From an uncultured virus (IMG/VR IMGVR_UViG_2061766007_000025) (lineage: Duplodnaviria > Heunggongvirae > Uroviricota > Caudoviricetes), in IMG/VR virus record IMGVR_UViG_2061766007_000025: a stretch of 64,000 nt of DNA; one strand, 5' to 3'. Shown piece by piece: positions 1 to 60,000 of the stretch; the first letter of the stretch is position 1; each line of letters starts with the position of its first letter. The notes below the pieces were generated by a model. That model ran no database searches. It was not told where the DNA came from and worked only from the letters and a program-made list of their open reading frames with translations. Made by a program: the position numbers and the translations under genes.

Positions 1-552
1 ATTATAAATGGAATGGTAGTACATGGACATCTGTATCTACATTACCATATAACTTCTATAGTGGTTCTGCTGTAGTATATAATAATGAAATACATATACT
101 TGGTGGTGATAATAGTAGTAATTATACTAAACATTATAAATGGGATGGTAGTACATGGACAGAAGTATCTACATTACCATATGATTTCTATAGAGGTTCT
201 GCTGTAGTATATAATAATGAAATACATATAATGGGCAGTAATAGTAGTATTAAAACTAAGCATTATAAATGGGATGGTAATACATGGACATCTGTATCTA
301 CAATACCATATAACTTTGTTGATGGTTCTGCTGTAGTATATAATAATGAAATACATATATTAGGTAGTAGTTATAGTACTAGTAATAGTCAAACTAAGCA
401 TTATAAATGGAATGGTAGTACATGGACATCTGTATCTACATTAGAATATAACTTCTATTATGGTTCTGCTGTAGTATATAATAATGAAATACATATACTA
501 GGTACATATTATAGTAATAGTCAAAATAAGCATTATAAATGGAATGGTAGTA
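1..552 (+). repeat. Coding tandem repeat, about 4.2 units of 129-138 bp
   Basis: (C)ATTATAAATGG recurs at 1, 132, 261, 399 and 531; GGTTCTGCTGTAGTATATAATAATGAAATACATATA is identical in four units. Confidence 0.95.
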
Positions 553-584
553 TGTGGATTCAAGTAGGATTGTTTTTCTATTAA
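1..584 (+). CDS. 5'-truncated Kelch-repeat beta-propeller protein, possibly a tail fibre/receptor-binding protein
   Basis: Frame is open from position 3 to TAA at 584. Tandem units HYKW(N/D)GxTWTxVSTLPYxFxxGSAVVYNNEIHILG match the Kelch pattern; the ORF-track start at 231 is internal. Confidence 0.75.
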   Translation, partial: YKWNGSTWTSVSTLPYNFYSGSAVVYNNEIHILGGDNSSNYTKHYKWDGSTWTEVSTLPYDFYRGSAVVYNNEIHIMGSNSSIKTKHYKWDGNTWTSVSTIPYNFVDGSAVVYNNEIHILGSSYSTSNSQTKHYKWNGSTWTSVSTLEYNFYYGSAVVYNNEIHILGTYYSNSQNKHYKWNGSMWIQVGLFFY

Positions 585-11213: not shown

Positions 11214-11533
11214 ATTTTTATCTCCTTTTTTATTAATATCATTTGTTTTTATTTGTTACTATTTGTAGGAGCCCGAGATTTCGTGCAATTACAGCACTAA
11301 TATATTAAAATTAGGCATTTTAAGTTATATTCCAGTATAGTCCTACGGAAAACTTATTTTAAACGCTTAAAATGCGAAAAATTCATCTGTTGACTTTTCA
11401 GCCAACAGATGAAAGTATATGTGAATCCTAACTTAGAACAATCATAATATAATAGATATAATAGTGTTTTTATAAGTGATTTGCAATATTCCACCCACAT
11501 CACATTATTATTATATATAATCAATTTATATTA

Positions 11534-14078: not shown

Positions 14079-14352
14079 ACATTAGACTCCTTGATCTAGA
14101 TAAAACTAATTACCACTAGTTCCATATGTAGACTGATCGTTATCATCATCATCATCTTTGAAGTTGATTTTGAACTCTAACATTCTCAATGCCCTCCCTC
14201 TTTTGTAGTTTTATTATATATTTTAAGATTTATATANNNNNNNNNNNNNNNNNNNNNNNNNNNNNNNNNNNNNNNNNNNNNNNNNNNNNNNNNNNNNNNN
14301 NNNNNNNNTTTTATCCTAGTATTATTCTAAGATTTTGGGCAGTAATTATATA

Positions 14353-16648: not shown

Positions 16649-18709
16649 CTAAATTAATAAAATATATAGTAATGCTTCTTCTATAATAATATCAGTCTCT
16701 ACATTGATAGGTTTACCATGCATAGCCCCTGCATATTTTATAGGTTCTCCATTACAACCTGGCCTCATTTCTGTATTATTCTTATCAAAATCTATAATAC
16801 GGAAACTACTTGTAATTATAGTAGCTATAGTTCCAAGTATCTGTCTTTGAATCTTATCATTCTTATATTTATCCAGTGTTAATTGATAATACTGGGATGC
16901 TTCCATCTTTACTTGCTCTTTCTTATTAAGAGTTTTTCTAGATGCAATCTTATCAACTTTAGATGATATGATATAAGGTAAAAATCCCATCATATTATCT
17001 TTAAGTATCTTCTTAGCAGCTAGCATAAGTTTAATATAATCAATACTATTAATAGCATTAGGAGAAGAAGTATCTCCAAAATACTTATAGAAAAGATTAA
17101 ATACTAGTTGCTTCTGAAATCCATTCATGATTTCACCATTATCATTTCTAAGTTCATGCATATAGAAATTAATTTCATCCTTATCAAAAGGACCCCACTG
17201 TCTTTCTATAATTTCCATAACTTTTTGACAATTAAACTTAGATTGTAAGAATATAGCTTCATCGGCTTTAACAAGATTGGCTTCGTATTTCCTTACATGT
17301 TCACATAAGCTCGTTACACTTATGCGGTTCTCTTATGAACTCCTTCATATCTCTATGAAGAGCAGACTATATCATTATCTCATTATTAAATGAGACAGCT
17401 CCCATTTCCATTTAAAGCGACTTACGTAGATCTAAATACTGCGCTACCACTTGGCTGTACCCTACTCACTTCTCATATATAAATTTCTTTATATATAATG
17501 CTTTCGTTAGTCGTTGAACCTTACCCTTTCGGATCTTGGCTGCTGATTATCCATTTTTACGTACTTTGACCTAGAAGATTACATCTAGCATTTCCATCAC
17601 TAAATAATAAACCTACTATCAACCAAGTTCTAGAAAGCTTGGCTCCACCCGTTTGCTACGAGCAGACTTAGTATAATAACCTTATTTTTAATGCTTTAGG
17701 ACTTCCCAGCAATTAAAGAGCTTTTAACTACATATCACTATGTAGCTGGACTATTACGTCAATCCAGATCTGAAGCACTATCTTCACCATCTCCTGGTGC
17801 TGAACTTAAAGGTATATAGTTATATTCATATGCTATATCTGTTACAGAGAATTTATTACTCTTCTGTATAGAAGTATAATTTAAACTAACCATATTCTGA
17901 TTAAATGCATATTTAGGCATAATGTTTAAGATTATATTTCTTACAGCTTGCATAGAATGAGTAACTACATCTTTACCTCTAATATCTTGTTTTGACCATA
18001 TTACTGCATTATTCTTAGCATTTCTGTTTACATTACTTATTGCTGTTTGATAAAGTTTACTAGATATATCCATATTTGCAAACTCTTGATAATAAAGAAT
18101 ATCATCAAATACATCTAGTATGAAATCATCTATATTTTGTATTCGTCTAGAATATGCAAAATGAGTTATAAGTGGAATACATAGATTCATAAATATACTC
18201 ATAGCTAATAATGTCTTAGCATGTTCATCTGTATATTGAAGCTGTGGGTTATTTATAGACTTATATGATAAACTAAGACTATAATTATATTCTACCATAG
18301 CTCTTATCTTTGCACATAGACTAGGCTGTATTATATATCTTCTTACATCATAAATGAAGTTCTCTTTTTTATATTCCTTTGTATAAACATCTAATAGATA
18401 TTTTATTTTCGCTAAGTTAGTATAATATTCTTTGTCTTCATCAAAGAATCTCTCAAAGTAATTCACGTACTGACAATAATGGTTCCTCAAGTCATCAGAG
18501 TTATATGACTTCTTAGGATTAACCATAAAATAGTTAATACTTATACCTGCATCTTCAGATAGATGAAAGTAACTATTTAGATTTGCTATAATGATATTTT
18601 TAGAATTTGTAAAAAGTATGTCCTCATGTTGAGGTATCCATTCATCTACGAATGGTATATTAGTTTTTGTGTCGCCCATAATCTTTAAGAACTCCTTTAT
18701 AGATTTCAT
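16649..18709 (-). CDS. Intron-split gene, exons 18709-17762 and 17290-16649 (529 aa); candidate sigma-like promoter-specificity subunit of the non-virion RNAP (AR9 gp226-like)
   Basis: Removing the intron fuses ...DSASDLD|KYEANLVKADE... in frame. Function is inferred from size and position two genes from the chaperonin (AR9 gp228/gp226). Confidence 0.55.
17291..17761 (-). ncRNA. Group I intron (471 nt, no ORF)
   Basis: Core elements P AATTGCTGGGAA, Q AATCAGCAGCCAAG, R GTTCAACGACTA, S GATATAGTC; P1 CTGGAT/GTCCAG with U.G; terminal G restores the frame. Confidence 0.92.
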
Positions 18710-22919: not shown

Positions 22920-23093
22920 TTTTCTTTCCTCCTGAAAAGTATTTAATGATTTTAAGTTTTAGNNNNNNNNNNNNNNNNNNNNNNNNNNNNNNNNNNNNNN
23001 NNNNNNNNNNNNNNNNNNNNNNNNNNNNNNNNNNNNNNNNNNNNNNNNNNNNNNNNNNNNATTTTACATCTTAGTAATAGGGGTGATTAGGAG

Positions 23094-23895: not shown

Positions 23896-26419
23896 TTATG
23901 CAAAAGAAATGTTAGCGGTAATCTTTACATCTGGTAATACTCTGGTTAAAGCATATGATGCTTGTGCACAGTCTGAACATATAGTCTTAGTAGGTCTACA
24001 ACCAAAGTCCATGAAATTTTGTTTAGAATACATAAATTCTTCCAACTCATCATTAGCCTCAGTTGTATAAACACCTTTACATGTAATTTGGTCAATTATC
24101 TTTACCATAAGCCGTGCTAAGTCTTATGATGTGCTTTAATAAAACACCTCATGAATTACCATGAGTTGAGACTATTTGTACACCCAATAAATATATTGGG
24201 GCAGTATTTTTCTTCCTCCATTAAGCACTTGAGGTTTTACTCTCCCGTTAGGAGATAGTCGTTGAACGTTCTTCTATAATATAGAAGCTTCGCTGCTATA
24301 CTAGGCTTGTTAACGATAACTTAGGATTTAACCTTATTATCATCTATATAACTTTTTTCTGCTTTCGCAACATTCACGCTTGATATCACTATCTACGTTG
24401 TAGTGTATATAGTTCTTGACCTTTTCATAGCAATTAACACTGGAAAACATACCTATTACTAGATATGCTGAGCTCCATTACTCCGTCGTAGTCAGCATCC
24501 ATTGCTTTTAGATATATATTAGACATACGCAACGTATCTACAAATGAATTAGTTGTATCTTTTCCTATATCTTCTTCTCTTATCTTAGGATAGTATGGAT
24601 AATATATATTATTAAAATACATAGGTTCGGTATCTATAGTAGAAGCAACTACAGCACCCATAGTAATTTGATTTGTATATTTATCACTTTAAACTCTATA
24701 TATTTCTATATAAACCTGACTATATCATAAGCGTGCATTCTAATAGAATGTTTAGCTTCTCCCTACTTCGAATCTAAAATATTTTAGACCCTACACGGTT
24801 ACACTCATCACCGTTAGTCGATGAACCTTATTCCTTATAATAAGGAATCTTGGCTGCTGATTTTCTATTATATAAGTACTTAGGTTTACACCATATACCA
24901 TCTAATCTATTTTTTCTACTTTCGTCGCATTCACGCTCATCTTTACAGATCACGTTGTAGCTAGATTAGCTTTAAGACGTTCCAGCAATTCAAGGAGTTA
25001 TTTCTTAGCGGTTTCCCTGCTAAGCCGACTGATAAATTTAATCGGAAATCTGGCTATAAGTACTTTCTTATCTTTTAATGCTTCGACTGCAGCTATATAG
25101 AATATATCACACCATGTCATTCTTCTTTGATAGATAGATTCTGGATTATTTTTTGCAGTTCCTGGATTTTGAAATCTTCCTTTAAATGTCATATAGTACT
25201 TTTCCTTAGTATCTTTCAATGGCACTTCTATAGGAATAAATCTATTATTGTATCCATGAATAAATCTTTCCATCTCATGTTTTATACGCTCATCTGAAAA
25301 AAGATTTATTTCTGGATCATCTACTTCGAAATTCTTTACTTTTCCATTCTTATCTATTACAGCATACTGTGTAAGACCATTAAATTCATTTTCAAAGAAA
25401 CTTTTTACATGAAAAGTTACAAAGTCTCTAAATTCTGCTATAGCAGCTGGTAATGGTAAAGCACAATGCTCAAAAGTAACCATCATATCTTGTGGCGTTT
25501 CTGCTTTAAGTTCTGGAGCAGATATTACAAGTCTTGAGGAGAAGTCTGCTGTCTTTGACATATTAGTTCTTCTAATATAACCAAACTTACCAGATAATCC
25601 AGAACCTGCATCTTCTGATAATGTAGGATTATTATTACCACAGAACCAATCATATATAGATAAGATTATCTCTTGTACTCTGCCTTTCATGGCTTCAGAT
25701 GAATCAAACATATAATCTCTTGTAGCGGTAAGTGCATTTGTAGCTACTATAAGATTATTATATATCTTATTTATACCACCTAGACCTACAGTTCTAGATC
25801 CTGTGTTCTTATCTCTATAGTATGGCGGTATTACAATATATTTGTTTATAAACATCTTATCTCTATTAAAATTAAGATATTGTATTTTTATATCTCTCTT
25901 TAGAGATTCTGTAGATTTAAACTTAATCTTATCTATATTCTTTCGTAAGAATTCTATTCCTGTTTGGCCTTTTGGATCTTGTACTAGTTCTCCTCTATCA
26001 TTAATTCTATATGTATCTAATCCATGAACTATATTTTTTACATTAGAATCTATTCTACACCAAGCTTTATAGCAAGAAGGATCTATAAAGTAGCCATGTA
26101 AATCTATATAAGCAAAAGTTCCTGCTCTATCAGCTTGTGTAACACCAAATATCTCCTGACTTAATAATCCTTCAGGACTAGGTATAGCTTCTCTAATAAA
26201 AGCTCTAGGATCTGATACAGGTTTACAATTATTTACATGAACAAATCTATCTACATCTAATACTTCTAGTTGTAAATGCTCAACTACCTTATCATACTGA
26301 GCTTCTGTTAATATTTCAGAATTTAGATAACTATTAGCTTCATCAAAGAAATCTACAACATCTGTAGTATTTTTTTCTATATGCGCTAGCTCTCTAAGTA
26401 TGTTTTGAGTACTTAACAT
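23896..26419 (-). CDS. rpoC: Phage multisubunit RNA polymerase beta'-like subunit carrying the catalytic motif; exons 26419-25041, 24686-24481 and 24092-23896 (about 593 aa)
   Basis: EGLLSQEIFG, VIPPYYRD, GKFGYIRR...K..DFSSR.VI, R.P and the spliced ADYDGD motif; AAGGAG RBS favours the start at 26419. Confidence 0.9.
24093..24480 (-). ncRNA. Group I intron (about 388 nt, no ORF) inside the DYDGD motif
   Basis: P AATTGCTATGAA, Q TAGCAGCGAAG, R GTTCAACGACTA, S AAATAGTC, three P9-type hairpins, ends AATTG. 5' boundary uncertain by 1 nt. Confidence 0.85.
24687..25040 (-). ncRNA. Group I intron (354 nt, no ORF)
   Basis: P AATTGCTGGAA, Q AATCAGCAGCCAAG, R GTTCATCGACTA, S GATATAGTC; P1 CCGAT/GTCGG with U.G; splicing gives RFPI-DKYTNQ in frame. 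Confidence 0.92.
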
Positions 26420-26441
26420 AATGCTTCTCCTTTCTTTATGC

Positions 26442-26455
26442 ATTATATTAATGTA
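26442..26455 (-). promoter_or_regulatory. AR9-type late promoter motif
   Basis: TACA-TTAATA-TAAT upstream of the RNAP gene RBS. Confidence 0.55.
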
Positions 26456-30674: not shown

Positions 30675-32860
30675 TGGATAAGTATTATGTAATAGATATC
30701 ACCAATAATATTGATGAGCTCAATATTGATATGACCAATTGGTGTAATCTTCCACATGAAATAAGAATGATGTCCAATGATGCATGTATTCGTCGTTATG
30801 GTATGACTAATATAGACTTATACAATAAGCTTAAAGCTATTCTTATTGGTAATAAGCCTGTGGAAGATCCAGAAATGATAGGCGCAATGATATCAGAAGA
30901 TGTATCATTCTCACAGTATGAATATAATGAAGAAGAGATGCAGTATAAATGGAAGTTAGATATATCTAAACAGCTATGTGAATCTCCTATTATTGCTATT
31001 ATAGATCCTTCTGTAGAAACTATGGAAGAATTAGATATAATGTATAATAAGTATATCTTGCTCCCTCAGAATGATAAAGATTTCTCTAATTCATATTCAT
31101 TAAAGTTATGGAACTATAATGTTCCTAATATGTATACTATCATGTCTTCAAAGATTCAAACTAAGAATGCAGATAAAGAAGAACCACTTACCATGCTTTC
31201 TAATTCGATATCTTCAGATCCATTATTTGAAAATGCTATGGATAAATTTATACAGAAGGATTTGATTGGATTAAATATGCTTAAACTTGACACAATTGAT
31301 AAAGACTCAGAATACAATTCAGTATTTACAGAAATAAATAGAGCTAATAATAATGATAGATTAGAATTAGAATCTATAGTTCCTTATTATACACCAGATG
31401 AAATGGATAACTTTGTATCAGGTCCTAATGGTAAGGTTATTACTGCAGAAAACTATAGTGGTACTCTATATAATACTATATATAGATATACTCATTCTAA
31501 TTCTGATTATGAAAGAGAATCTTTAAGAGAAGATATTAAGAACTTAGGATGGAATCCTAATGTAGAACTTACTAAAGAGAATATAGAGTTTGCTAAACGG
31601 AGACAGAATAACTGGCTTAAGAATTATGGAGCTAGAATTATAGATGTTTCTAACATGAAAGTATCTCCTGAAGTGATACAAGAATCTAGTGCTGGTATGA
31701 ATGCTATGTATAAGAAACAGAATTTATATCCTATCTATATAGTACTAAGCTTTTCTAATACTATATTTGGTAAGATTATTACCAGAATTAAACACTGTAC
31801 TTATAGCCATGCTGGATTATCATTAGATTCTGATTTGTCCCAGATTATGACATTTAAATATGATCAGGATAAAACACATAATGGATTCCATGTAGAAAGA
31901 TTAGATAAATATATAGCTAATTCTGATGAATCCATAATTTGTGTATGTTGCATATTTGTAGATGGTGCTACTAGAGATTCTATTAAATATACTCTAGAAG
32001 ACTTTGTAAAGAAACAACCATTTACTACATATAACTTTGGCAATCTGATTAATATTCTTATAGGTAAAGAGAAAACAGCTAAGGATAATCTTTCTTTAGT
32101 ATGCAGCCAGTTTGTAGATACAGTACTAAAGTTATCTAAGATTAACTTAACTCATAAATCTTCAAACTTAGTTATTCCTCAAGATTTTTATGCTGCTAAG
32201 AATCCTAAAGTATTTAAGATTTATGAAGGTTTAGCTAAAGAATATGATGATCACAGAACAGAAGATATTATTAAGTCTCTTTATAAATCTCATAAGAAAT
32301 CTGGATTAATGTATACAGAAGTTATGGAATCATTAATTGGAGGATATACTTCTACATCATTTGATTATATAACAGAGAATGAAGAAGCTAATAGTATATT
32401 AGATGAGTTAGCTAGTATGGTTACTCCTAGTACAGTAATTTATGAGAGAAAGTTGCCATTTACTATAAAAGACAATGGTGATGTATCTATTAAATTATTT
32501 AAATCTATGGAATCAGAATATCAAGAAGCTCATAAGTTATTAACTACTTATAATAAGAATAATGTAGTTGGTATTAAACATGAACTCGCTAGACTATTCT
32601 ATGTAATATCTTGTGCTGAGAAGAAGATTAAGAAGATGGAAAAAGCTGATGAGAATTATCAGAAAATGATTAATCTTCGTGCTAGAGCTTTGAACGATTT
32701 CAAGAAATATCTAAAACAGATTCAGGATATAGAATCTAATTTTGATTTTGCTAAGTATTATAAAGAGTCTGAATATTCTGATGATTCTATAGAAATAGAT
32801 AAGAATATATTTAAATACGGAGCAAAACTTATTTCAACAATATTAACCAAGGGTAAGTAA
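30674..32860 (+). CDS. Probable virion protein with a permuted papain-like (YiiX/YebB-type) amidase domain
   Basis: I......YSHAGL precedes Y and LVCSQFV (His before Cys). Confidence 0.65.
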   Translation: MDKYYVIDITNNIDELNIDMTNWCNLPHEIRMMSNDACIRRYGMTNIDLYNKLKAILIGNKPVEDPEMIGAMISEDVSFSQYEYNEEEMQYKWKLDISKQLCESPIIAIIDPSVETMEELDIMYNKYILLPQNDKDFSNSYSLKLWNYNVPNMYTIMSSKIQTKNADKEEPLTMLSNSISSDPLFENAMDKFIQKDLIGLNMLKLDTIDKDSEYNSVFTEINRANNNDRLELESIVPYYTPDEMDNFVSGPNGKVITAENYSGTLYNTIYRYTHSNSDYERESLREDIKNLGWNPNVELTKENIEFAKRRQNNWLKNYGARIIDVSNMKVSPEVIQESSAGMNAMYKKQNLYPIYIVLSFSNTIFGKIITRIKHCTYSHAGLSLDSDLSQIMTFKYDQDKTHNGFHVERLDKYIANSDESIICVCCIFVDGATRDSIKYTLEDFVKKQPFTTYNFGNLINILIGKEKTAKDNLSLVCSQFVDTVLKLSKINLTHKSSNLVIPQDFYAAKNPKVFKIYEGLAKEYDDHRTEDIIKSLYKSHKKSGLMYTEVMESLIGGYTSTSFDYITENEEANSILDELASMVTPSTVIYERKLPFTIKDNGDVSIKLFKSMESEYQEAHKLLTTYNKNNVVGIKHELARLFYVISCAEKKIKKMEKADENYQKMINLRARALNDFKKYLKQIQDIESNFDFAKYYKESEYSDDSIEIDKNIFKYGAKLISTILTKGK

Positions 32861-32872
32861 TTACCCTTGGTT
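32845..32872 (+). terminator. Terminator hairpin overlapping the stop codon
   Basis: AACCAAGGGTAA-GTAA-TTACCCTTGGTT followed by a T run. Confidence 0.8.
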
Positions 32873-32997
32873 TTTATATGCATTTGTAATTTTATACAAT
32901 TAGCAACTTTATAAATAATAATATACTATATTTATATAATNNNNNNNNNNNNNNNNNNNNNNNNNNNNNNNNNNNNNNNNNNNNNNNNNNNNNNNNT

Positions 32998-33138
32998 ATG
33001 ACATTCGAATTATGGTTATTTACCATAAAGAGGCTAGGGCAAACTTTTGATACTGCTAAGATGATATATGACCAGTTACCAGAAGATAGAAAAGATGAGC
33101 TCAAAAAAGAATATGAAAAATATAAAGGAGAAGCATAA
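32998..33138 (+). CDS. Small protein (at least 46 aa) absent from the ORF track
   Basis: MTFELWLFTIKRLG...KGEA*; ends 2 nt before the next ATG; upstream region lies in an N gap. Confidence 0.55.
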   Translation: MTFELWLFTIKRLGQTFDTAKMIYDQLPEDRKDELKKEYEKYKGEA

Positions 33139-33140
33139 TA

Positions 33141-34199
33141 ATGGAACTTGCTAGAATGGTTGGGTGTAAACTATTTAAAGTAAATGAAGATGATACTATA
33201 GATATGCTTAGAATCAAATATGTTAAAAAATATCCTAAGGGTGGTTCTCCTAGTGAGATAACTATATATAACTATAACTCAGAAACTACTGAAAAAGTTA
33301 GAGTAGATTCTTTAAAAGATTATAGTCCATTGGAGCCAGATGGTATATGTACTTTTAATATAGCTAAGGTTAGAGATAATAATGGTAAGATCTTTAAGGA
33401 TATTATAGTTACAGGTAATAAATTTTTAAATATGAAAATTGGTGATATTAAACCATATTGTATTTGTAGACAAGCAGCTATAGATATATTCTATAGTTTA
33501 TTCCATCCAGAGCATGTAGAAGAAAGAGATAAAAATTCTATGGTAGGAATATCGGTAAATATGGATTCTGTTCCAGTTGGTTATGACTGGGGGGAACTAT
33601 TATGCTGTGAAGAGATAGAATATTTTGATTTCATAAATTTCTATAGAACAGATACATTAAACGACATTCTTAATCTAGTAGATATAAAGAAGTTTGATAA
33701 AGTATTAGAAGATCTTTATAATAGACATGTAGAAGCTGTAGGAGATCCAACTCTACAGTTTAAGAAAGAAGATCATGGATGGTGCAGAACTTTAAAGAAG
33801 TTATTAGAAGATAATAATTTCCAGAGTGATCTTAATGATATGCTTGGAATAACTGATGTTGGTTTTAACATTGACGAATACATAATTAATAAAAGATTAC
33901 CTAATTCTGAAGAAGAATATGAATCTTTTTCTGATGATCTTAGATATTGGTTAAGTTCTATATATAAGCTTAATATTAAAGAGACTTATGTATTTGTATT
34001 TAACCATGATATAAATCTTGCAGACTATAATGATTCTAGATATTTCTTATTAAGGGATATTAATAATATTCTATATTTAGTGGTTTATACTTTAGATGGA
34101 GAGTACAAGGAAGCTGAGTTAGCCAGACTCGATAAGCAATTAAGCTTTAGTGAAAAGTTCCGTATTGACTTCTATAATAAGTATAATAAACTATCATAA
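33141..34199 (+). CDS. Hypothetical protein (352 aa)
   Basis: AAGGAG RBS; long ORF. Confidence 0.75.
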   Translation: MELARMVGCKLFKVNEDDTIDMLRIKYVKKYPKGGSPSEITIYNYNSETTEKVRVDSLKDYSPLEPDGICTFNIAKVRDNNGKIFKDIIVTGNKFLNMKIGDIKPYCICRQAAIDIFYSLFHPEHVEERDKNSMVGISVNMDSVPVGYDWGELLCCEEIEYFDFINFYRTDTLNDILNLVDIKKFDKVLEDLYNRHVEAVGDPTLQFKKEDHGWCRTLKKLLEDNNFQSDLNDMLGITDVGFNIDEYIINKRLPNSEEEYESFSDDLRYWLSSIYKLNIKETYVFVFNHDINLADYNDSRYFLLRDINNILYLVVYTLDGEYKEAELARLDKQLSFSEKFRIDFYNKYNKLS

Positions 34200-34225
34200 G
34201 AATATTATCGATATTATATAATATA

Positions 34226-34589
34226 TAGTTACCGTGTATTGAAACTTACAACTACCTACGTTTAATGATTGTTAAAAATTGAATACGAAACGCCTGTCTA
34301 AAAATAAAAACTCTTGAAGTTTCATTAGAAGATTCAGTTATTTTCCCCTTTCGTAAATAAATATAGAAAATAATTCTTCTAACTTTATATAGAGTTTTTA
34401 TTTAAAGACGCAATTGAGTAAAAATAATTATAGTTATATATAATTACTATGTCATGTAGGAATATGTGACTAGTTACTTTTACCACAATTGAAACTTCCA
34501 TGTCTTACCAACTTTTACATGGAGCATGATTCACAAGTTTCATTATATGATTTAGAGTTTGATGTATTTCACTAAATTATATAACTTTA
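34226..34589 (+). ncRNA. Candidate structured RNA/DNA element in two tandem diverged copies (34226-34387, 34471-34589)
   Basis: Both copies have TAGTTAC..ATTGAAACTT..TACC..AAGTTTCATTA..TAACTTTA with sequence-variable stems between the blocks. Confidence 0.5.
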
Positions 34590-34668
34590 AAGCGATCAAT
34601 TTTAATTTTTGATATAGAGAGTTAATCTCTATAAATATATTAATATTATATAAAGGAGGGCATAAATC

Positions 34669-35415
34669 ATGAGTGAGCAGAACGAAACCACTAAGAGGGA
34701 AAAGTTCGCAATCGAGCCAGATGAGTTTTTCGAATTTGGCGGTATTGCTGAGACTTCTTTCATGACCTCTAGAGAGTTATCTAGTATGGCAGCAGATTTA
34801 TTCCGCAGTGTATTTTCAGATTTTGAGGGTGTAACATTTGATGTTTCTCCATCACCAAATGGTAATGGTGGCAAAGAAGCATACTTATCAATCATCTTCA
34901 ATCACAATGAAAATGAGGTCGAGGGCAAGGTTAAAGGATGCAAACCAAATGGTGTTGAATCATCTGGTAGCAGCGTTCTTGATCGTGTTCGCGCAAGAGA
35001 CAATCGTCTTAGAGAGGGAGATCGTTATATCCTTACAGACGATGCAAAAGATGTTGTAAAGTCTCTTCTTGTACCAAGAGCTTTCAATAACGGTAACGTT
35101 AATTGGAAGAATATTACTACAGAGATCGCAGATCAGGGTCCTAGTTCACTTTATTATCGTCCAGATAGTCCTAAGTATACTAAGGTATTCTACATTGACC
35201 TTAATAGACTTTGTGGACTTCTCTTTGGTTCCAAAGATGGTGATGATGATTTAGTTTATGATGTAAGACTCGCAGCTGCTGTTCCATCATTTGGCGGAAT
35301 TCCAGGAAATAATTATATTCTCAATATCATTAAGGTATCTGAGAAGAATATCAAAGAGTTCTGTAGTAAGATCGGTCTTGAAGGCTATACAGGATCACTC
35401 GATATCATTAGATAA
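34669..35415 (+). CDS. Hypothetical protein (248 aa), probably highly expressed
   Basis: AAGGAGG RBS; codon usage less AT-skewed, like the capsid gene. Confidence 0.8.
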   Translation: MSEQNETTKREKFAIEPDEFFEFGGIAETSFMTSRELSSMAADLFRSVFSDFEGVTFDVSPSPNGNGGKEAYLSIIFNHNENEVEGKVKGCKPNGVESSGSSVLDRVRARDNRLREGDRYILTDDAKDVVKSLLVPRAFNNGNVNWKNITTEIADQGPSSLYYRPDSPKYTKVFYIDLNRLCGLLFGSKDGDDDLVYDVRLAAAVPSFGGIPGNNYILNIIKVSEKNIKEFCSKIGLEGYTGSLDIIR

Positions 35416-35493
35416 TTTTATATTATCTAATACTATCAGGGTATACTAAGGATACCCAAAAGTAGATCAGGTTATTAACCGCAAGTAGATCAA

Positions 35494-35521
35494 GGGAAGG
35501 GTGTTGTGAAGCACCCTTCCC
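35494..35521 (+). terminator. Terminator hairpin
   Basis: GGGAAGGGTG...CACCCTTCCC followed by a T-rich tract. Confidence 0.75.
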
Positions 35522-35582
35522 AAATTTTTAACTTGCAACTTTAATATAATTTTATTTTTAATATTTTAAGGAGAATAAGGGT

Positions 35583-36005
35583 ATGTTTGATGGTGGATTT
35601 AATTATCATGTATTTAAAGACTATAATATTAGTTTTGATGAAAAACAGAATACCTATGGTACTGTAAGATTGGCTCAGTGGGTAAAACCAGGAGAAGAAC
35701 CAGATATTAATAAAGCTAAAGTTGAAATTAGAAAAATGTTAGTTAAACCTGATGGAGAACAACCTATGAAAGGTTGTGCTATTACACCAGATGCTACTAA
35801 TGATCTTACTGATGGTTTAGTAGATGTTGGATTTGGACATACAAAGAATATCTTAAAGAGTGTATCTAAAAGAGAAGACTTTAAGGATTCTATTGAGCAT
35901 ATAAATGATAATGATGAAGGTGATGATGATGGTGAGATGTTTGATATGAGAGACTTACTATTGGGAATATCGCCTAATGAAGAAGTTACAGAGGATGATG
36001 AATAA
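35583..36005 (+). CDS. PC4/YdbC-like single-stranded nucleic-acid-binding protein
   Basis: 'VRLAQW.....K.EIRK......PMKG..IT' pattern with an acidic tail; motif AACT-TTAATA-TAAT upstream (35537-35550). Confidence 0.55.
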   Translation: MFDGGFNYHVFKDYNISFDEKQNTYGTVRLAQWVKPGEEPDINKAKVEIRKMLVKPDGEQPMKGCAITPDATNDLTDGLVDVGFGHTKNILKSVSKREDFKDSIEHINDNDEGDDDGEMFDMRDLLLGISPNEEVTEDDE

Positions 36006-38610: not shown

Positions 38611-39585
38611 TTATACATTAGCCGTTATGTCTACTTGTTTAGTTTGAGTTTGTTGTTGAGCTACAGGTTCCTCTTTACTAGTATTAGGGTTTTTCTTTAA
38701 TACAGATGACACTGGAATATATGTCCTTAATATTTCTAATCTAGTTCTAAATAGATCTTTAATAATATTCATCTTAGCAGTAAGTATCTGCATAGATGCT
38801 GACATATAAACATTAACAGATTTTAACATGCTTTTAGCACCATCTTTATTCTGTTGATTATCTGCACCTTCACCTTGATTCTGATCATTATTCTGATCTT
38901 CTTTAGGTTTTTCTATATCTTGCTTTTCTATAGCTTCTAAGAATAATGCTGATTCTTTTAAAGTATTTGCTACCTGAGCTATAGCTTGATTAGATTGATT
39001 GACTTTTCCTATATCATCTTTAATCTTTGTAATCTCATTCTTTGCACCAGTCTTGCAGAACTCATAAGCCGAAGTTATCATTTTTGCATCTGCTTTAACA
39101 TTATCTGTTACAGTATATACATATTTTTCTACTCTAGCCTTAGTTCCACCTTCCTGAACTTCTGGAAGCATATTATAATACTTCTTCATAAAATCATCTA
39201 CAGAAGTAAGATCTTCTTTCATAGCTTCATAGTTCATCGGCTGTATATGAATAGATTGTAGTTTATTAAAGTCACATGTTGTATATTTACCAACTGTAAA
39301 ATTTGGATTAGGAGTAGTTATCTTTCCTTCAATAGCTTTAAGATATGGTTGAGCTGGTCCTGTTGTTATAATACCCATTATCGTAGCATAAGCTTTTTCA
39401 AGTGCAGTGGTTATCTTTCCTAAATATTGCATTACTGTATCTTTTACAGCTTCCTCAATATAAACTAAACCAACACTTTCGTTCATTATATAAGAAGAAC
39501 TTATATTAGTTAAAGTTTCTATAAGTTCTTGTTCTGCTATAAATACAGAATATTCAAACTCATATTCTTCTAATGAAACTCCCAT
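38611..39585 (-). CDS. Internal head protein-like paralog 4
   Basis: Acidic leader, hydrophobic-x-E, amphipathic helix, helical C-terminus. Confidence 0.5.
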   Translation of the reverse strand: MGVSLEEYEFEYSVFIAEQELIETLTNISSSYIMNESVGLVYIEEAVKDTVMQYLGKITTALEKAYATIMGIITTGPAQPYLKAIEGKITTPNPNFTVGKYTTCDFNKLQSIHIQPMNYEAMKEDLTSVDDFMKKYYNMLPEVQEGGTKARVEKYVYTVTDNVKADAKMITSAYEFCKTGAKNEITKIKDDIGKVNQSNQAIAQVANTLKESALFLEAIEKQDIEKPKEDQNNDQNQGEGADNQQNKDGAKSMLKSVNVYMSASMQILTAKMNIIKDLFRTRLEILRTYIPVSSVLKKNPNTSKEEPVAQQQTQTKQVDITANV

Positions 39586-54071: not shown

Positions 54072-57000
54072 TTAACCTTTAGCAAGTGCAGCTAAAGTTC
54101 CAGCAAGTGCTTTAATATTAGAATCTACGTCTTCTGGTACATTCTTCTGTACATCTTGTTTAGTATTAGCTTTCTTGGTAGCAACCTCACCATAAGCAGA
54201 TAATGCTGTATAAATCTTCTCAACCGGAGCAGTATTATTAGCAATAGCTGTAAGAAGTTCTATAATAGCAGTTATAAGCTGCTGTAAGAGATCAGCAGGA
54301 ATAGAACCATTAGATGATACATTTGTAGCTATGTTATTAAGCATAGATGTTGTAGCACCCGTCATAGCTCTATTAAGACTAGATGCTCCACCAGACATAG
54401 CTCTAAGTGAAGGTCTAAGTCTTCTAATTCCAGATCTTCCGCCAGAGAAGTTATCAGCAGATACATAGTTCTTTTTAGTACTAGCAGTTGCTTTAACTTT
54501 CTTAGTATTTTTAGAACTAGTTCCATACTGATTAAGCAATGTTTGATAAGTCTTATAAGTATCCGTATCAGCATATGGATTTCCACTATTATACTTAGCA
54601 ATATCTTTATATCTCATAGACATGATATAATTATGACCATGGGTATTAGCCCAATTTACATAACCAGAAAGATCTTGTTCCTGAGGACCAATTCCACTAC
54701 CATGCCCAATTGTAGTATTTTCACCACTGTATACTTCAACATGCCCTACATTATAATCTCTACCATTAGGCTTATTTGACTTATAAAACATAAGATCGCC
54801 AGGTTCAAGATTAGCAACATTAGGAACAGTACCTGAATCTACAGCAACAAGTTGATTTGACTTAATCTGTGCGCCTGTATATGCACCAGGATCAACATTA
54901 AGACCTTGTTTATATACCCACTGAGCAAATGATGAACAGTCTGAGTATCCTTGACCGACTTTTCCACGAAGAGAACCATCTTGTGAATACTGATCTCTAC
55001 CAATAATAGATCTAGCATACTGTACAAGTTTCTTCTGCATTGGATTGCCTTTGCCCTTAGGAGCATTTCCAAGAGTAATAGGACCAGTAGCTAAGCTTGC
55101 ACCACTGATTGAATCAGCAGATCCACTATTTCCTGAGAGAGCACCAAAGATCTTAGAGAAGATACCTCCAATACTTGATAATAAGTTTGCAAATGTAATC
55201 TTCTCTTCGCCTCCACTAGAAGATGTTGAATCGTTAATAGAAGTAGGTGATATATAGTTTGGATCAAACTTAACATCAGAACCACTATAAAGATTATAGT
55301 ATTCTTTAGCCATCTTAATTCTATTAGCCATATTAGGTTTACCAGCACGTTCAAATCCACCTTCAAATTGTCTGGTAGCCATCTCGACACCAGCTTCAGT
55401 ATTAGGTGATTGCTTCCACTGATCAACTGTAGTAAATGATGCACCAGCAGGAGACATTCTACTACCTTCTCTAAAGTAATAGTTCTGAGCAGGAAGATCT
55501 TTTTCATGTAAGAAAGCAAGCTGTGTATTAAGGTCTGTCCAGTTCTTTCCTCTAGCTTTAGCAAATTGACTAAGTGCTAACCATCTAGACTCCTTAGTAT
55601 TATAGTTCTCCCATTGCGCAATACCAGCAGCAGGACCTTTTCCACCACCCTGAATAATTGCAGGATCAAGATGTGATTCTTGATAGAGGTTACCCATAAG
55701 ACCAGCAATAGCGGCATTAGAATAACCTTGGTTCTTGAAGTAAGCCCATACTTGTCTTGCATTAGAAGTATCATAATTACCAGCACCACCAGCTTGTATA
55801 CCGAGAGATGCTGATTTAAGTATAGCAGGATTATAAAGCATTGTCTTCGAAGATTCTGGATCTTGTACAACAATTCTACCGGATTTATCAAATCCTCTAG
55901 CAAGTACATAATGCTTAGAAGGTCCAAAAGGTGATCTTGCTTTAGAAGTATTTTTAGCATCACTACCAAGAAGAATTACCTGGTGACCTGAAGCTAATTG
56001 ATTAACTATTTCTGGGGCACCCTTTACATAATTGGTCCTAATGCCTCTAGAACCTAAAGCTTCTTTAAAGTAATCAACAGATACACCATCATTATTCTGA
56101 TATTTTTGACTAAGTTTAATAGCATCTTTTACAGGAAGATCTTTACCATAAGCACTAGCAGCCATAGAAGCTACAGCAGGCCCACAACCTTTCTCTCCAA
56201 AGGTACTACCACTCATAGGAATATCTTTATAACGTGTATCATATTGAGATACATGCTCACCTATTCCAGAAGCACCACCACCAGTAACCCAATTCCAAGC
56301 TTGTTTAATTCCACTACCAAAATCGCTAGCAGATTGTTTTACATTTTGGAAAAACTCAGAATTTGTTATTTTCTGTACAAGTTCAGAATTTTTAAACTTA
56401 TCCCAGATATCACCAATCCATCCGAAGAGTTTCTTAAATAATGCACTAATAGTATATCCAATCTTACTTGTAAAGAAGCTAAAGCTATATAAACCTTTCA
56501 TGAAACTATTAAACTCAGGCCCTTGTTCATTCCAGATAGATCCTACATCACCTTCATCAGCATATTTAGCAAGAACTTCACGAGATCCATTTAAAGTTTG
56601 CTGATCTTTTACAATAGGTTCAGATAAAGTTTTTACTCCATCCCAAATCTTATGTCCTAACCAAGACATACTAGCAAGAGGAGTATTGTATACCTTCTGG
56701 AAAGTAGCTATACCTTTCATCATTCCATTTAAAGGATTATCAGGATTATCTTCAGGCTCAAGTTCCCACATACCTGAAATATCTCCTTCAAGAGCTTTCT
56801 TCTTTATTTCTATTTCATTAGTACCTATAGAAATAAATGAATTCTTAATACCAGTACCAACAGCTTTTACTCCATCCCAAATCTTATGTCCTAACCAAGA
56901 AACAGCAGTAAGAGGAGTAGCAAATACAGATTGAACTATATTGATACCCTTCATTATACCATTTAATGGATTATCAGGATTATCTTCAGGTTGACGGCTC

Positions 57001-60000
57001 CATAAGCCTTCTAAATCGCCAGCAGCTGTCATCTTAGCAATTTCTATTTGATTTTGACCTATAGCAATAAATGAATTCTTAATACCAGTACCAAGAGCTT
57101 TTAATCCATCCCAAATCTTATGTCCAAGAAGTGATACTAAGGTAATAGGAGTAAGTAATATCTTCTGTACTGTACATATAGCTTTATTAACGCCAGTTAA
57201 AGGATTATCTTCATCTTCTTCAGGACGTACACCCCATAAGTTAGTAAGATCACCTTTAATAGCCATTTTAAGAAGCTGAGCAGTCTGAGTTGCAAGACCA
57301 ATAGCACCCTGACCAATCTTCGATTCTTTAATGCCAGTAACTACATTACCTACAGCTTGTCCAATCTTAGTTGAGCTTAAAGCACTACCAATACCTTTTT
57401 CTTTAGCATGTGTCATGAAACTCTTAATTCCATGCTTAGCTTTAGATATAATACCAGCATTACCTTTAACTGCAAGATTATATTCTTCGATAGTATATGA
57501 AGTTCCATTAGCTTCGTTATATGCTTCAACTTCTTCAGTTGCTCTTGCTCTTTGATCTGCTAATTCGGATACATCAATACCAATCTTAGGTGCTATTTCC
57601 ATAAAGATATTTACAAGTACCTTATTAGGAATAAGGTTACCAATTACAGGAATCAATGCATTAACTACAGCAATAAGAGTAGCAATTACTCTTTGACCTA
57701 TTGTAGGTTTATCAGTAATTCCAAGGATAGATGCAGCATCACCCCAAGCATTAATACCAACGCCTGCAATATAAACAACCTGAGCAACAGCAAAAGCTGT
57801 TTTTAAACCTTTAGCAATGACATCAAGTTTAGAACTTAAGCCTTTTACAGCATCATCAAGATGATTATAAAGTGTATTAACGATAGTATCAGCATTTGCT
57901 TTAACGCTATCGGGTAAGAAAGGAATTTTAGATAAAATGGCAGGTATTTTATCAAGTAAGCTTTTAATTGTAGCCATTACACCTTTAGCCATAGCTGGGC
58001 TTGTAGCAAGATCTTTAGCTGCTTCTGAAGCTAATTTCTTTGCACCACCTGCTGTTACTACATTCTTTACTCCATTAACTGCTTTCTTAGCAACGAATGA
58101 TGTTACAGATCCACCACCTGTCATTACTCCATTCACTAAGTTTTTCTTTAATAGTGTAGAGAATCTTGTATCTTCACCAGCTGATTGATAATTAGATACT
58201 TGATCTTTAGATATAGTAGATCCATCTATTCCTATATAATTACCATTAGCATCTTTGAGAATATTACCTTTAGCATCAAGCTGTACTTCTCTCTTAGATC
58301 CATCTGATAATGTAACGGTCATAGATCGATTATCATCTAATGTAGAATTACCTTCTGTCTCATTACCTTTTAATGCAGGAATTATCTCTCCAAGTTTCTT
58401 AAAAAGACCATCGAATTTACCAGCAAATCCAGCAGCAAGTAATGCAACACCTAAAGCAGGCCCAGCAATATTAGTAATTAAAGATTTAAGAGTCAAACCT
58501 TCAGATCCGAATAAGAAATTCTTAATCTTATCTAAGAAAGTTTCTTTTTTATCACCTTTTTCATCTTTTTTCTTACCAAATAATCCACCAAACCATCCAC
58601 CAATCTTATTAAATAGACTAGGAAGACCAATAACTGCACCCATGAACCCATTAAGCTTTTCAGTTACATTACTGGTTTCTTTATCAGTATTATCAACATC
58701 AACAGATCCATCACTGTTTTCACGAAGTTCAACTACGCTGTTAGTAAACTGATTATATTCAGTTCTATATTTTGCTTTATCTTCTGCAGAAGAATTAAAT
58801 ATACTCTTCATTCTACCATCAGCAGTAGTAGCAATCTTTTCACCAGTAATCTTAGATACAATCTTAGAAACCATAGTTTCAAGATTTTGTAATGATGCAG
58901 CTTCTGGAGATAATAACTTCCTTGTAGCTCTTTCACTCTTAGCAAGTCCTATAGCAGATACAAGATTATTCTTATTAAGTTTTAAACCTTTTTTATTTAA
59001 TGCTTCAAGAACTCTTTGGCTTTCAGCAGAACCATTACCAGCTCTTTCAAGATCTGCAATAAGCTGGTTCATTTCTTCTTCACTCTGAACTCCTGCTAAA
59101 ATCTGGTCAAATGTACCAAATGTACCACCTAAACCATTTCTACCTCCGATCTCTTTTCTTAATCCAAGTCTCTCTTCAGCAGTAAGATTTCTTCCAGCTC
59201 TTTTATCATAAACATCATAACCTTTTCTAAGATTACCACGTTTAACAGAAGTTCCTATACCTTTAACTAAACCGCCAACTTTATTTACAGCTCCAAAAGT
59301 TAAAGCATTAGCAACTCTACCAGCACCACGAAGTCCTTTACCTAATAATGAATTACCACTAGCTGTCTTCTTTGCAAAGTCTGTAAGCTTTCCAACAGCA
59401 GCAGATAATAATAACTTAGTATCATTAAGAAGTTTTCTACCTACACCTTTTAAAGCATTACCAATATTGGCAAATAATTCAACAAGATGACCAAAAAGTT
59501 TCTCTTGTAATGTAGGAAGTAAACCTTTCTTACTCTTATCATCAGGATCACCAAAGAACCATTTATGGAACTTATCTGTACTTGTAAGAAGTCCAACAGC
59601 AGAACCAATTACAGCTCCGCCAAGAATACCAAACGGACTACCAGTAAGCATACCAATAATTCCACCAATAGCCATATTAGGTGCAGCTTTCTTAACACTC
59701 TTCTGAAGTTCTTTAGATATTAATCCACCTGCACGTCCTGTAGGATTGCCTTTTTCATCTACTTCCATCTTTCCAAATAAGAATTCCTTAGCTGATTCAG
59801 AAGAAGAAATATATCCTACAGTAGATCCAAGAACAGCACCAAGTATAGGTGAACCCATAAACACTCCACCTATAGTACCAACTGCTCCACCTTTAGCCAT
59901 GCTAGGTACATTCTTAGTTAAAAAGTTAGACATATCTTTAGAAATAAGTCCACCTTTTCTACCTATAGGTTTACCATCTTTATCTACTTCCATTTCTCCA

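Follow-up and report, generated by a model that had tools for sequence, protein, structure and literature searches.

A possible tandem promoter-leader duplication ahead of a conserved early gene in an uncultured AT-rich phage

The 64,000-nt stretch of the IMG/VR virus record IMGVR_UViG_2061766007_000025 (hereafter, the window) contains a 469-bp spacer (positions 34200 to 34668) between two plus-strand open reading frames (ORFs) of 352 and 248 aa, within which two related units, unit 1 and unit 2, lie in tandem. The reading that we favor, tentatively, is that the promoter-leader region of a conserved early gene was duplicated in tandem in this lineage and now makes up the spacer. Unit 2 most likely forms the inner part of a structured 5′ untranslated region (UTR), 218 nt long, of the 248-aa gene, and unit 1 is most likely a diverged tandem copy, decaying or re-used, which has an off-consensus promoter and is partly absorbed into a long hairpin (HP-A). 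Unit 2 is assigned to the leader because the second of two promoter-like elements in the spacer corresponds to the putative early promoter of relatives. The simplest history would be a tandem duplication of promoter and leader followed by divergence. A preliminary description of the locus took the spacer to be noncoding, and it does lack any plus-strand ORF of 40 aa or more; the frames that start in it or reach into it encode 23 to 38 aa, and one 90-aa frame on the minus strand overlaps the next gene. A 28-aa frame with a TTG start (34489 to 34575) was considered as a small ORF and rejected; it has no ribosome-binding site (RBS), and its unit 1 counterpart stops after eight codons.

The two units were recognized by five short blocks that recur in the same order, and these proved collinear at the positions originally reported, several of them being longer than described: TAGTTAC (34226 and 34471), ATTGAAACTT (34238 and 34488), a TACC block, AAGTTTCATTA (34317 and 34535), and TAACTTTA (34380 and 34582). 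The second block extends to a 12/13 match (ATTGAAACTT.CA), the fourth to 18/21 (AAGTTTCATTA.A.GATT.AG, 34317 to 34337 versus 34535 to 34555), and TACC to TACCNACNTTTA, with 10 of 12 letters identical in the chained alignment. A further shared pair, ATATATAGTTACCGTGT and ATATATAATTACTATGT (14/17 identical), covers the promoter-like boxes. The chained local score of the two halves was 91.1, compared with 66.3 ± 6.8 in dinucleotide shuffles, 1 of 500 of which reached it; elsewhere in the window, 4 of 129 adjacent segment pairs scored as high. When both strands were scanned without bias in 3126 segments of 200 nt, the unit 1 region was the best match to unit 2 (z = 4.2). The collinear similarity of the two units exceeds chance. 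MAFFT did not align the units block by block, and base pairs were therefore read by coordinates instead of being counted in an alignment. Searches of the window with a unit 2 covariance model, blastn, and a chained-match scan found no additional copies, and blastn of the spacer against the window gave short chance matches only (e.g., 15/15 with the start of the ORF at 38611 to 39585).

A promoter had been proposed ahead of each unit, of which the second is credible but the first is off consensus. The octamer T[TA]TATAAT alone is no evidence of a promoter, because it occurs 81 times in the window. According to the excerpted text of a study of jumbo phage AR9 (PMC5312081), the early promoters of this phage follow the consensus AAATATATATTAT-(6N)-G+1 and are read by the virion RNA polymerase, which is sensitive to deviations from it. 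Promoter P2 reads TTATATATAAT-TACTAT-G, with one change in the last four bases with respect to the consensus end ATATATTAT. A scan of the window for TATATA[AT]T-N6-G gave 11 matches. Of the five that are intergenic, those at 34451, 14908, 11503, and 1545 face the next gene, and the fifth is within an intron region. Five relatives with available DNA (L005, a 225-kb IMG/VR contig, and L006 to L009, from metagenomes) keep both flanking genes, at 30 to 40% protein identity. Their spacers of ∼90 to 220 bp contain neither unit. In L005, L007, L008, and L009, these spacers carry (G/A)T(T/C)ATATATTAT-N6-G (TATATATTAT-N6-G) ahead of the homologue of the 248-aa gene. The window aligns with this motif at 34408 to 34470, including the upstream AGTAAAAATA, and the spacer gave blastn matches to L005 and L008. 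The putative start G lies 6 nt downstream of the box in promoter P2 (G34451) and likewise in the same four relatives. By this correspondence, promoter P2, with its box and start G at 34434 to 34451, can be called the counterpart of the relatives' AR9-type early promoter, and unit 2 stands behind a credible promoter that is close to the published AR9 early consensus. The motif recurs ahead of several genes of the same genome, as do AR9-type early promoters, both in the window and in L005, in which two further near-consensus copies each precede another gene (three sites in 6.7 kb).

Promoter P1, on the other hand, has a G at 5 nt and a T at 6 nt, and TATATA[AT]T-N6-G is unmatched there. An alignment with the stop codon in register places it where the relatives have their promoter. 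RNAs starting at G34228 or G34236 would have no 5′ hairpin, unlike the counterpart leaders. Two additional readings were considered and dropped: a fossil RBS or start codon at the end of unit 1, for which the alignment was unconvincing, and GAGTAA at 34416 as a fossil stop codon, since L008 has the same AGTAAAAATA away from any stop. The near-consensus boxes TATATATTAT-N6 of the relatives are at 1015, 2757, and 5466 in L005, 1907 in L007, 2916 in L008, and 156 in L009; a G follows N6 in all but L005 5466, and the boxes often lie ∼10 to 20 nt past the stop codon of the previous gene.

The 5′ UTR predicted from G34451 extends over 34451 to 34668 (218 nt) and would begin with a hairpin at its very first base (Table 1). 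Hairpins of 9 to 10 bp also begin at the predicted G in the leaders of L007 (−10.3 kcal/mol; z = −4.0), L008 (−10.0 kcal/mol; z = −7.1), and L009 (−8.1 kcal/mol; z = −3.0), and their stem sequences differ. Further downstream, the pairings listed in the preliminary description are present letter for letter, but the multi-stem fold that it proposed is, as a whole, only partly supported. By direct reading, stem P1 (AGTTA/TAACT) has 5/5 pairs, stem P2 has 8/8, and the base of hairpin P3 has 8/8 in both units; stem P2b has 4/4 pairs in unit 1, and in unit 2 its CCATGT/ACATGG pairing is inside an 8-pair helix (34496 to 34503/34517 to 34524). Hairpin P3 forms in both units, within the common arrangement AAGU-UUCAU-[P3]-ACUU, and its stem keeps pairing despite sequence change: among eight pairs aligned between the units, two are altered in both bases (G-C to U-A; A-U to U-A), a third is altered in one base (G-C to G.U), and none is broken. 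Stem P1 clashes with P3 because both use the same TAA, and the partition function computed for the whole gap gives it a probability of 0. The TGAAACTT/AAGTTTCA (X/X′) stem turned out to be context-dependent, being part of the minimum-energy fold of unit 2 alone but not favored in longer contexts. Unit 2 folded at −21.8 kcal/mol (z = −2.36), and its hairpin at 34488 to 34545 had z scores of −2.37 (plus strand) and −1.75 (minus strand), with a probability of 0.9 for the inner stem in the whole gap. Of the two small hairpins that follow unit 2 in the leader fold, the fold of the whole gap retains that at 34614 to 34632 (probability 0.94), whereas 34601 to 34613 goes into a long-range helix. The gap as a whole yielded z = −5.55 on the plus strand versus −3.78 on the minus strand. 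An RNA-level function is plausible.

The two strongest structures of the gap were not among the elements initially noticed. HP-A, a near-perfect inverted repeat that includes P3 of unit 1 and its TAACTTTA block, has a folding energy of −30.5 kcal/mol (z = −6.81) on the plus strand and −31.8 kcal/mol (z = −5.93) on the minus strand. HP-B spans the second promoter (−21.1 kcal/mol and z = −3.83 on the plus strand; −16.0 kcal/mol and z = −3.55 on the minus strand) and would be available only in transcripts that enter the spacer from upstream. That both hairpins are nearly as stable on either strand, and that HP-B is centered on the predicted start site, are features expected if the element acted as DNA, either through operator-like WTGAAACTT sites or through long palindromes in a signal for replication or packaging. 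Within 300 bp there are four sites that differ from ATTGAAACTT by at most one mismatch, compared with 15 on both strands of the entire 64-kb window; each unit has two, in inverted orientation, around the early promoter. The half-site centers are spaced by 79 and 47 bp, a difference of 32 bp, or about three helical turns. However, this spacing is unequal between the units, several G.U pairs can form on the plus strand only, and that strand folds better. The relatives lack both these sites and a comparable element at this position, none of the neighboring proteins has a known DNA-binding function, and the cumulative GC skew, which follows gene direction, has no extremum at 34 kb, where the preliminary description had considered a replication origin. 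A DNA-level function is held to be quite unlikely.

The preliminary description proposed, among other readings, a new family of phage small RNAs. In such a case, each unit would be an independent gene with its own AT-rich promoter, its RNA ending at P3 or being processed after it and acting in trans as a regulator or decoy. The alternation of conserved blocks with differing stems that still pair and the folding bias toward the plus strand agree with this idea. So does a contig from an RNA library of a related strain (run X16), which joins the end of the 352-aa gene to 34303 to 34332, thereby keeping the X′ block with one change in 30 nt between flanks that are unlike those of the window; its word depth was 7.4 versus 2 to 2.5 for coding contigs of the same run, contig depth being a poor measure. 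Elsewhere in the window, at 11503 on the minus strand, the same promoter type is followed by a 5′ hairpin and then by a terminator ∼120 nt downstream, and short early transcripts may therefore exist in this phage. In the units, however, P3 is followed by CUUUA, that is, by three U only, and no terminator-like site was scored in 33900 to 34900, whereas the real terminators elsewhere in the window consist of GC-rich stems followed by T-runs. Promoter P1 is off consensus and would not provide a 5′ hairpin, and the units are missing from all five relatives. Together with the negative searches described below, these features make independent small RNA genes an unlikely explanation.

The minus-strand site at 11503 is itself of note. 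It lies in another long spacer (11214 to 11533, minus strand), in which TATATATAAT-N6-G predicts a start at G11503, where a hairpin may form at +1; ∼85 to 125 nt downstream, CATCTGTTG...CAACAGATG and the AATTTTT after it make a good intrinsic terminator, and the next ATG is ∼170 nt further on. By its letters, the site is a candidate 120-nt early small RNA or attenuator. It was discarded as a third unit; the unit 2 model gave it only 16.7 bits (E = 0.24), and it was outside the top eight chained matches.

Homologues of the units were not found elsewhere. Searches of 50,697 phage records with the DNA of 33000 to 36000 (blastn) and with both flanking proteins (tblastn) gave no match, and AR9 has no DNA or protein match to this locus. 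The relatives were obtained through the flanking protein, one locus by an alignment-based scan of IMG/VR and four in JGI metagenomes; a single-protein IMG/VR scan and a protein scan of species genomes returned none. The IMG/VR pattern ATTGAAACTT-N30-60-AAGTTTCATTA retrieved four coding-looking, chance-like loci without the other blocks; AAGTTTCATTANANGATTNAG retrieved 11 loci, likewise coding-looking and chance-like, none with TGAAACTT at the expected upstream place or AACTTTA downstream; and CTCTTGAAGTTTCATTAGAAG retrieved none. No further copy thus emerged from the window, from the IMG/VR pattern and protein scans, or from the protein scans of JGI metagenomes and species genomes. The Rfam scan that had been suggested at the outset was run with Rfam 15 and gave nothing in the gap at gathering thresholds. 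The best subthreshold matches, cow-rumen-4 (18.4 bits; threshold 48.5) and caiA (15.8 bits; threshold 55.5), are both at 34611 to 34671, outside the units. The resemblance to cow-rumen-4 (RF02948), at 34612 to 34665, comprises a hairpin (AUAGAGA/UCUCUAU), then UAAAUAUAUU, and then AGGAGG before the start codon, but five of the seven pairs of the second stem are nonstandard. This motif might be a leader element of rumen phages; a literature search on cow-rumen-4 RNA retrieved nothing. A literature search on rumen jumbo phages likewise brought up nothing on the element formed by the units, and no feature of the gap pointed to a ribozyme, another identity initially suggested. The units have so far been found in this lineage only, and the case for a widespread new RNA family or class is weak.

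A more specific suggestion was that the units mimic CRISPR repeats or crRNA, with ATTGAAAC serving as a 5′ handle that would load Cas proteins with a decoy. Many type I and type III repeats end, at their 3′ side, in ATTGAAAC, which both units contain. Nevertheless, it is not enriched in the window (5 occurrences versus 3.6 ± 2.1 expected), and the segments ahead of it measure 12 and 17 nt from the start of TAGTTAC and differ in their letters. At this repeat-like end, the units share only TAGTTAC and ATTGAAACTT, separated by 5 and 10 nt of different letters, and no segment of full repeat length is common to both. Among 185,579 species genomes, the 18-mer ending in ATTGAAAC had exact matches at 39 loci, always single and never arrayed. 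Solitary repeat units and RNA anti-CRISPRs do exist in phages, and the units resemble them in having a short motif like the end of a CRISPR repeat; unlike them, the units share no full-length repeat-like segment, and no matching array was found. We regard CRISPR mimicry as extremely improbable.

The similarity of the units could also be the remnant of a tandem duplication in a hairpin-prone, AT-rich spacer, devoid of function beyond one working promoter. Five relatives manage without the units. Unit 1 folds no better than shuffles, either entire (z = −0.53) or over its P2 domain at 34236 to 34328 (z = −0.23), and was not found by the unit 2 model. Eight-base-pair stems are frequent by chance: a Watson-Crick stem of this length closing a loop of 20 to 90 nt occurred in 30% of mononucleotide shuffles of unit 1 and in 14% of those of unit 2. 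In the strain represented by the X16 contig, 72 unlike letters take the place of 88 nt of unit 1, and past 34332 the sequence differs too. Moreover, template switching can by itself, with no selection, produce paired changes in quasi-palindromes. On the other side, runs of 10 to 11 identical nucleotides (12/13 and 18/21 when extended) persist amid otherwise unalignable sequence, and the z score of HP-A is −6.8. A DNA contig from another gut sample (run X6; 34451 to 34687) differs from the window by six substitutions and one inserted base. All six substitutions are within 34564 to 34603, and none is in 34451 to 34563; 34578 T>C turns a G.U pair of P3 into G-C, 34571 A>G turns U-A into U.G, and 34564 is in the loop. 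Pairing in P3 is kept through the two double changes between the units and through the two single changes in run X6. These signs of constraint are few events in close strains. A functionless remnant appears improbable on this evidence.

If the favored reading of a duplicated promoter-leader region is correct, transcription would start at G34451 from an early promoter of the type recognized by the AR9 virion RNA polymerase (TATATATAAT-N6-G), and the leader containing unit 2 would consist of the 5′-terminal hairpin, two larger hairpins, and two small ones. The unit 1 copy, with a period of ∼215 to 250 bp, would have been placed between the upstream stop codon and the real promoter. The structures would most probably work on RNA in cis. 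Protection and tuning of the early mRNA may fall to the 5′ hairpin together with the leader hairpins, and HP-A and HP-B, present in read-through transcripts only, may define either a 3′ end or a site of double-strand-specific cleavage by which the two messages are uncoupled. Of the trio X (TGAAACTT), X′ (AAGTTTCA), and X″ (AACTTT), X′ can pair in two ways that exclude each other, and the trio could constitute a switch. A bolder version of this proposal makes the units lineage-private early structured RNAs, in which AAGUUUCA would switch between UGAAACUU upstream and AACUU downstream to set the fate of the early message or to release a stable decoy RNA. We consider it quite unlikely; if true, a virion RNA polymerase would here be transcribing an RNA switch carried by a phage, for which no counterpart has been described.

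Several observations weigh against the promoter-leader reading. Promoter P2 has TAAT where the TATATATTAT of the relatives has TTAT, a difference of one position, L006 departs from the motif after TATATATT and was unmatched in the motif scan, and the 5′ hairpin of L005 is weak (−1.8 kcal/mol; z = −0.25). A 218-nt leader is long compared with those of phage phiKZ, in which most 5′ UTRs are of 31 to 40 nt according to the excerpted text of PMC8244752. The X/X′ stem is absent from the minimum-energy fold of the leader (34451 to 34690) and has a probability of at most 0.07 in the whole gap. The expectation that a model of one copy would retrieve the other was not borne out: with a covariance model built from unit 2, unit 1 was not among the 49 matches in the window at E values of up to 10 and scored only 6.1 bits when searched alone. 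Two copies plus near-identical strains amount to no real test of covariation, and an alignment of the unit ends did not fix the boundaries of the duplication. The lack of scored terminator-like sites around the spacer counts on the same side. HP-A and HP-B are about equally stable on the minus strand and might thus act at the DNA level. Finally, the sequencing runs were available as contigs, from which transcript starts, ends, or strand cannot be read, and stretches without contig cover in runs X5, X6, X8, and X16 are uninformative.

Table 1. Positions of the features of the spacer and its flanking genes in the window
Feature	Position	Strand	Basis or remarks
352-aa ORF, function unknown	33141..34199	+	ORF list; upstream neighbor of the 248-aa gene homologue in relatives
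First promoter-like copy (promoter P1), ATTATATAAT	34213..34228	+	Starts 14 nt past the stop codon; G after 5 nt
Unit 1 (bounds of the preliminary description)	34226..34392	+	Repeat blocks; best window-wide match to unit 2
Block X (ATTGAAACTT), unit 1	34238..34247	+	Complementary to 34317-34324, 8/8 pairs
HP-A, near-perfect hairpin of 116 nt, ∼40 bp	34295..34410	+	Inverted repeat; helix probabilities 0.89-0.99
Block X′, unit 1	34317..34337	+	Can pair with X upstream, or through AAGT with ACTT downstream
HP-B, imperfect hairpin of 81 nt, ∼31 bp, centered on the predicted start	34411..34491	+	Probabilities 0.93-0.97
Second promoter (promoter P2), GAGTAAAAATAATTATAGTTATATATAAT-N6-G	34416..34451	+	Predicted start G34451; counterpart of the relatives' motif
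5′-terminal hairpin, 8 bp	34451..34470	+	Begins at the predicted +1 G; −7.3 kcal/mol
Unit 2 (bounds of the preliminary description)	34471..34594	+	Inner part of the predicted 218-nt 5′ UTR
Unit 2 hairpin	34488..34545	+	X (34488-34497), CCATGT/ACATGG stem, TACCAACTTTTA loop, X′ (34535-34545)
Unit 2 hairpin P3, 13 bp + 3 bp	34543..34584	+	z = −2.03 (+), −1.41 (−)
Two small hairpins	34595-34613, 34614-34632	+	Both in the leader fold; between unit 2 and the RBS
RBS, GGAGGG	34655..34660	+	8 nt upstream of the ATG of the 248-aa gene
248-aa ORF, large uncharacterized phage protein family	34669..35415	+	Strong RBS

The proteins flanking the spacer are uncharacterized. PHROG and Pfam scans of the 352-aa ORF gave no match, and the 248-aa protein has no Pfam, PHROG, or PDB sequence match. 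A word-based search found three relatives of the latter, and a profile search found 584 representative clusters (50% identity; E values of up to 0.001). Its AF2 model is an alpha/beta fold with a mean pLDDT of 90.3 (39.6 in an earlier model), for which no clear solved fold was found (Foldseek E values of 0.013 or worse; best VIA Z of 4.2); BFVD matches were uncharacterized Myoviridae proteins only. With no clear match, the function of this protein therefore gives no clue to the role of its leader.

The window looks like part of a large phage, most likely an uncultured AT-rich rumen jumbo phage that encodes multisubunit RNA polymerase subunits. Its GC content is ∼26 to 37% per 2 kb, and the sequencing runs in which the region occurs are, by their records, gut metagenomes of cattle, goats, or other animals; runs with only a small share of it are no evidence on habitat. 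PHROG matches include an RNA polymerase beta subunit (24998 to 26443, minus strand), a second RNA polymerase piece (17759 to 18709, minus strand), a major head protein, a DNA primase, a GroEL-like chaperonin, RusA, and several virion proteins; a tRNA search of the window found none. A group I intron (17343 to 17773, minus strand; Rfam RF00028, 76 bits) adjoins the second polymerase ORF, the ORFs involved being 17759 to 18709 and 16649 to 17218, and the polymerase gene is probably split by this intron. Three further features lie away from the spacer. A coding repeat with GTTCTGCTGTAGTATATAATAATGAAATACATATA, in four tandem copies ∼130 nt apart, is inside an open-ended ORF (3 to 584) at the start of the window (1 to 584). 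A 2913-aa ORF (54072 to 62813, minus strand) has PHROG matches only to a stretch of ∼170 residues (2342 to 2515), one of these matches being to a tape-measure-like family. Runs of N occur near 14170 to 14200, 22920 to 23090, from 32941 onward, and from 37447 onward, one of them within the spacer (32860 to 33141) upstream of the 352-aa gene.

Three known systems offer parallels to the proposed region. RNase III processing hairpins are found between early genes of phage T7 and Bacillus phage SP82. HP-A and HP-B are like these sites in being long, imperfect hairpins of 30 to 40 bp with internal loops, placed in the spacer of a same-strand early gene block. They show no sequence similarity to the T7 and SP82 sites, are missing from the relatives, and represent the single intergenic spacer considered here, known from its letters. 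The predicted leader, unusually long and rich in hairpins, and the 116-nt hairpin would be sensible objects for studies of how mRNA is processed in phages that carry an RNA polymerase of their own. Stem-loops at the 5′ terminus stabilize bacterial and phage mRNAs, as in the ompA leader, and in the window and three relatives a hairpin likewise begins exactly at the predicted first base of the mRNA, with differing stem sequences. Here the comparison ends: the predicted leader of the window continues with four more hairpins, its length is about four times that of the leaders of L007 to L009, and stabilization would be its presumed effect.

The closest parallel is with AR9. As in the early promoters of this phage (excerpted text of PMC5312081), the element of the window and its relatives is an extended AT-rich stretch ending in TATA(T/A)AT with a G six bases on, and, as in the AT-rich early promoters of AR9- and phiKZ-related phages, it recurs ahead of several genes, often directly past the previous stop. 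Like AR9, the genome of the window has multisubunit RNA polymerase subunits and introns; intron-split genes have been described in AR9, and the RNA polymerase gene of the window probably has a similar arrangement. The window version differs in reading TATATATAAT rather than TATATATTAT. If our reading holds, promoter-leader modules of these phages can be duplicated and remodeled within a lineage, and uncultured rumen jumbo phages share the AR9-type early promoter grammar (an AT-rich box, a G six bases on, and a hairpin at the first transcribed base), which helps the annotation of early genes in jumbo-phage metagenome contigs.

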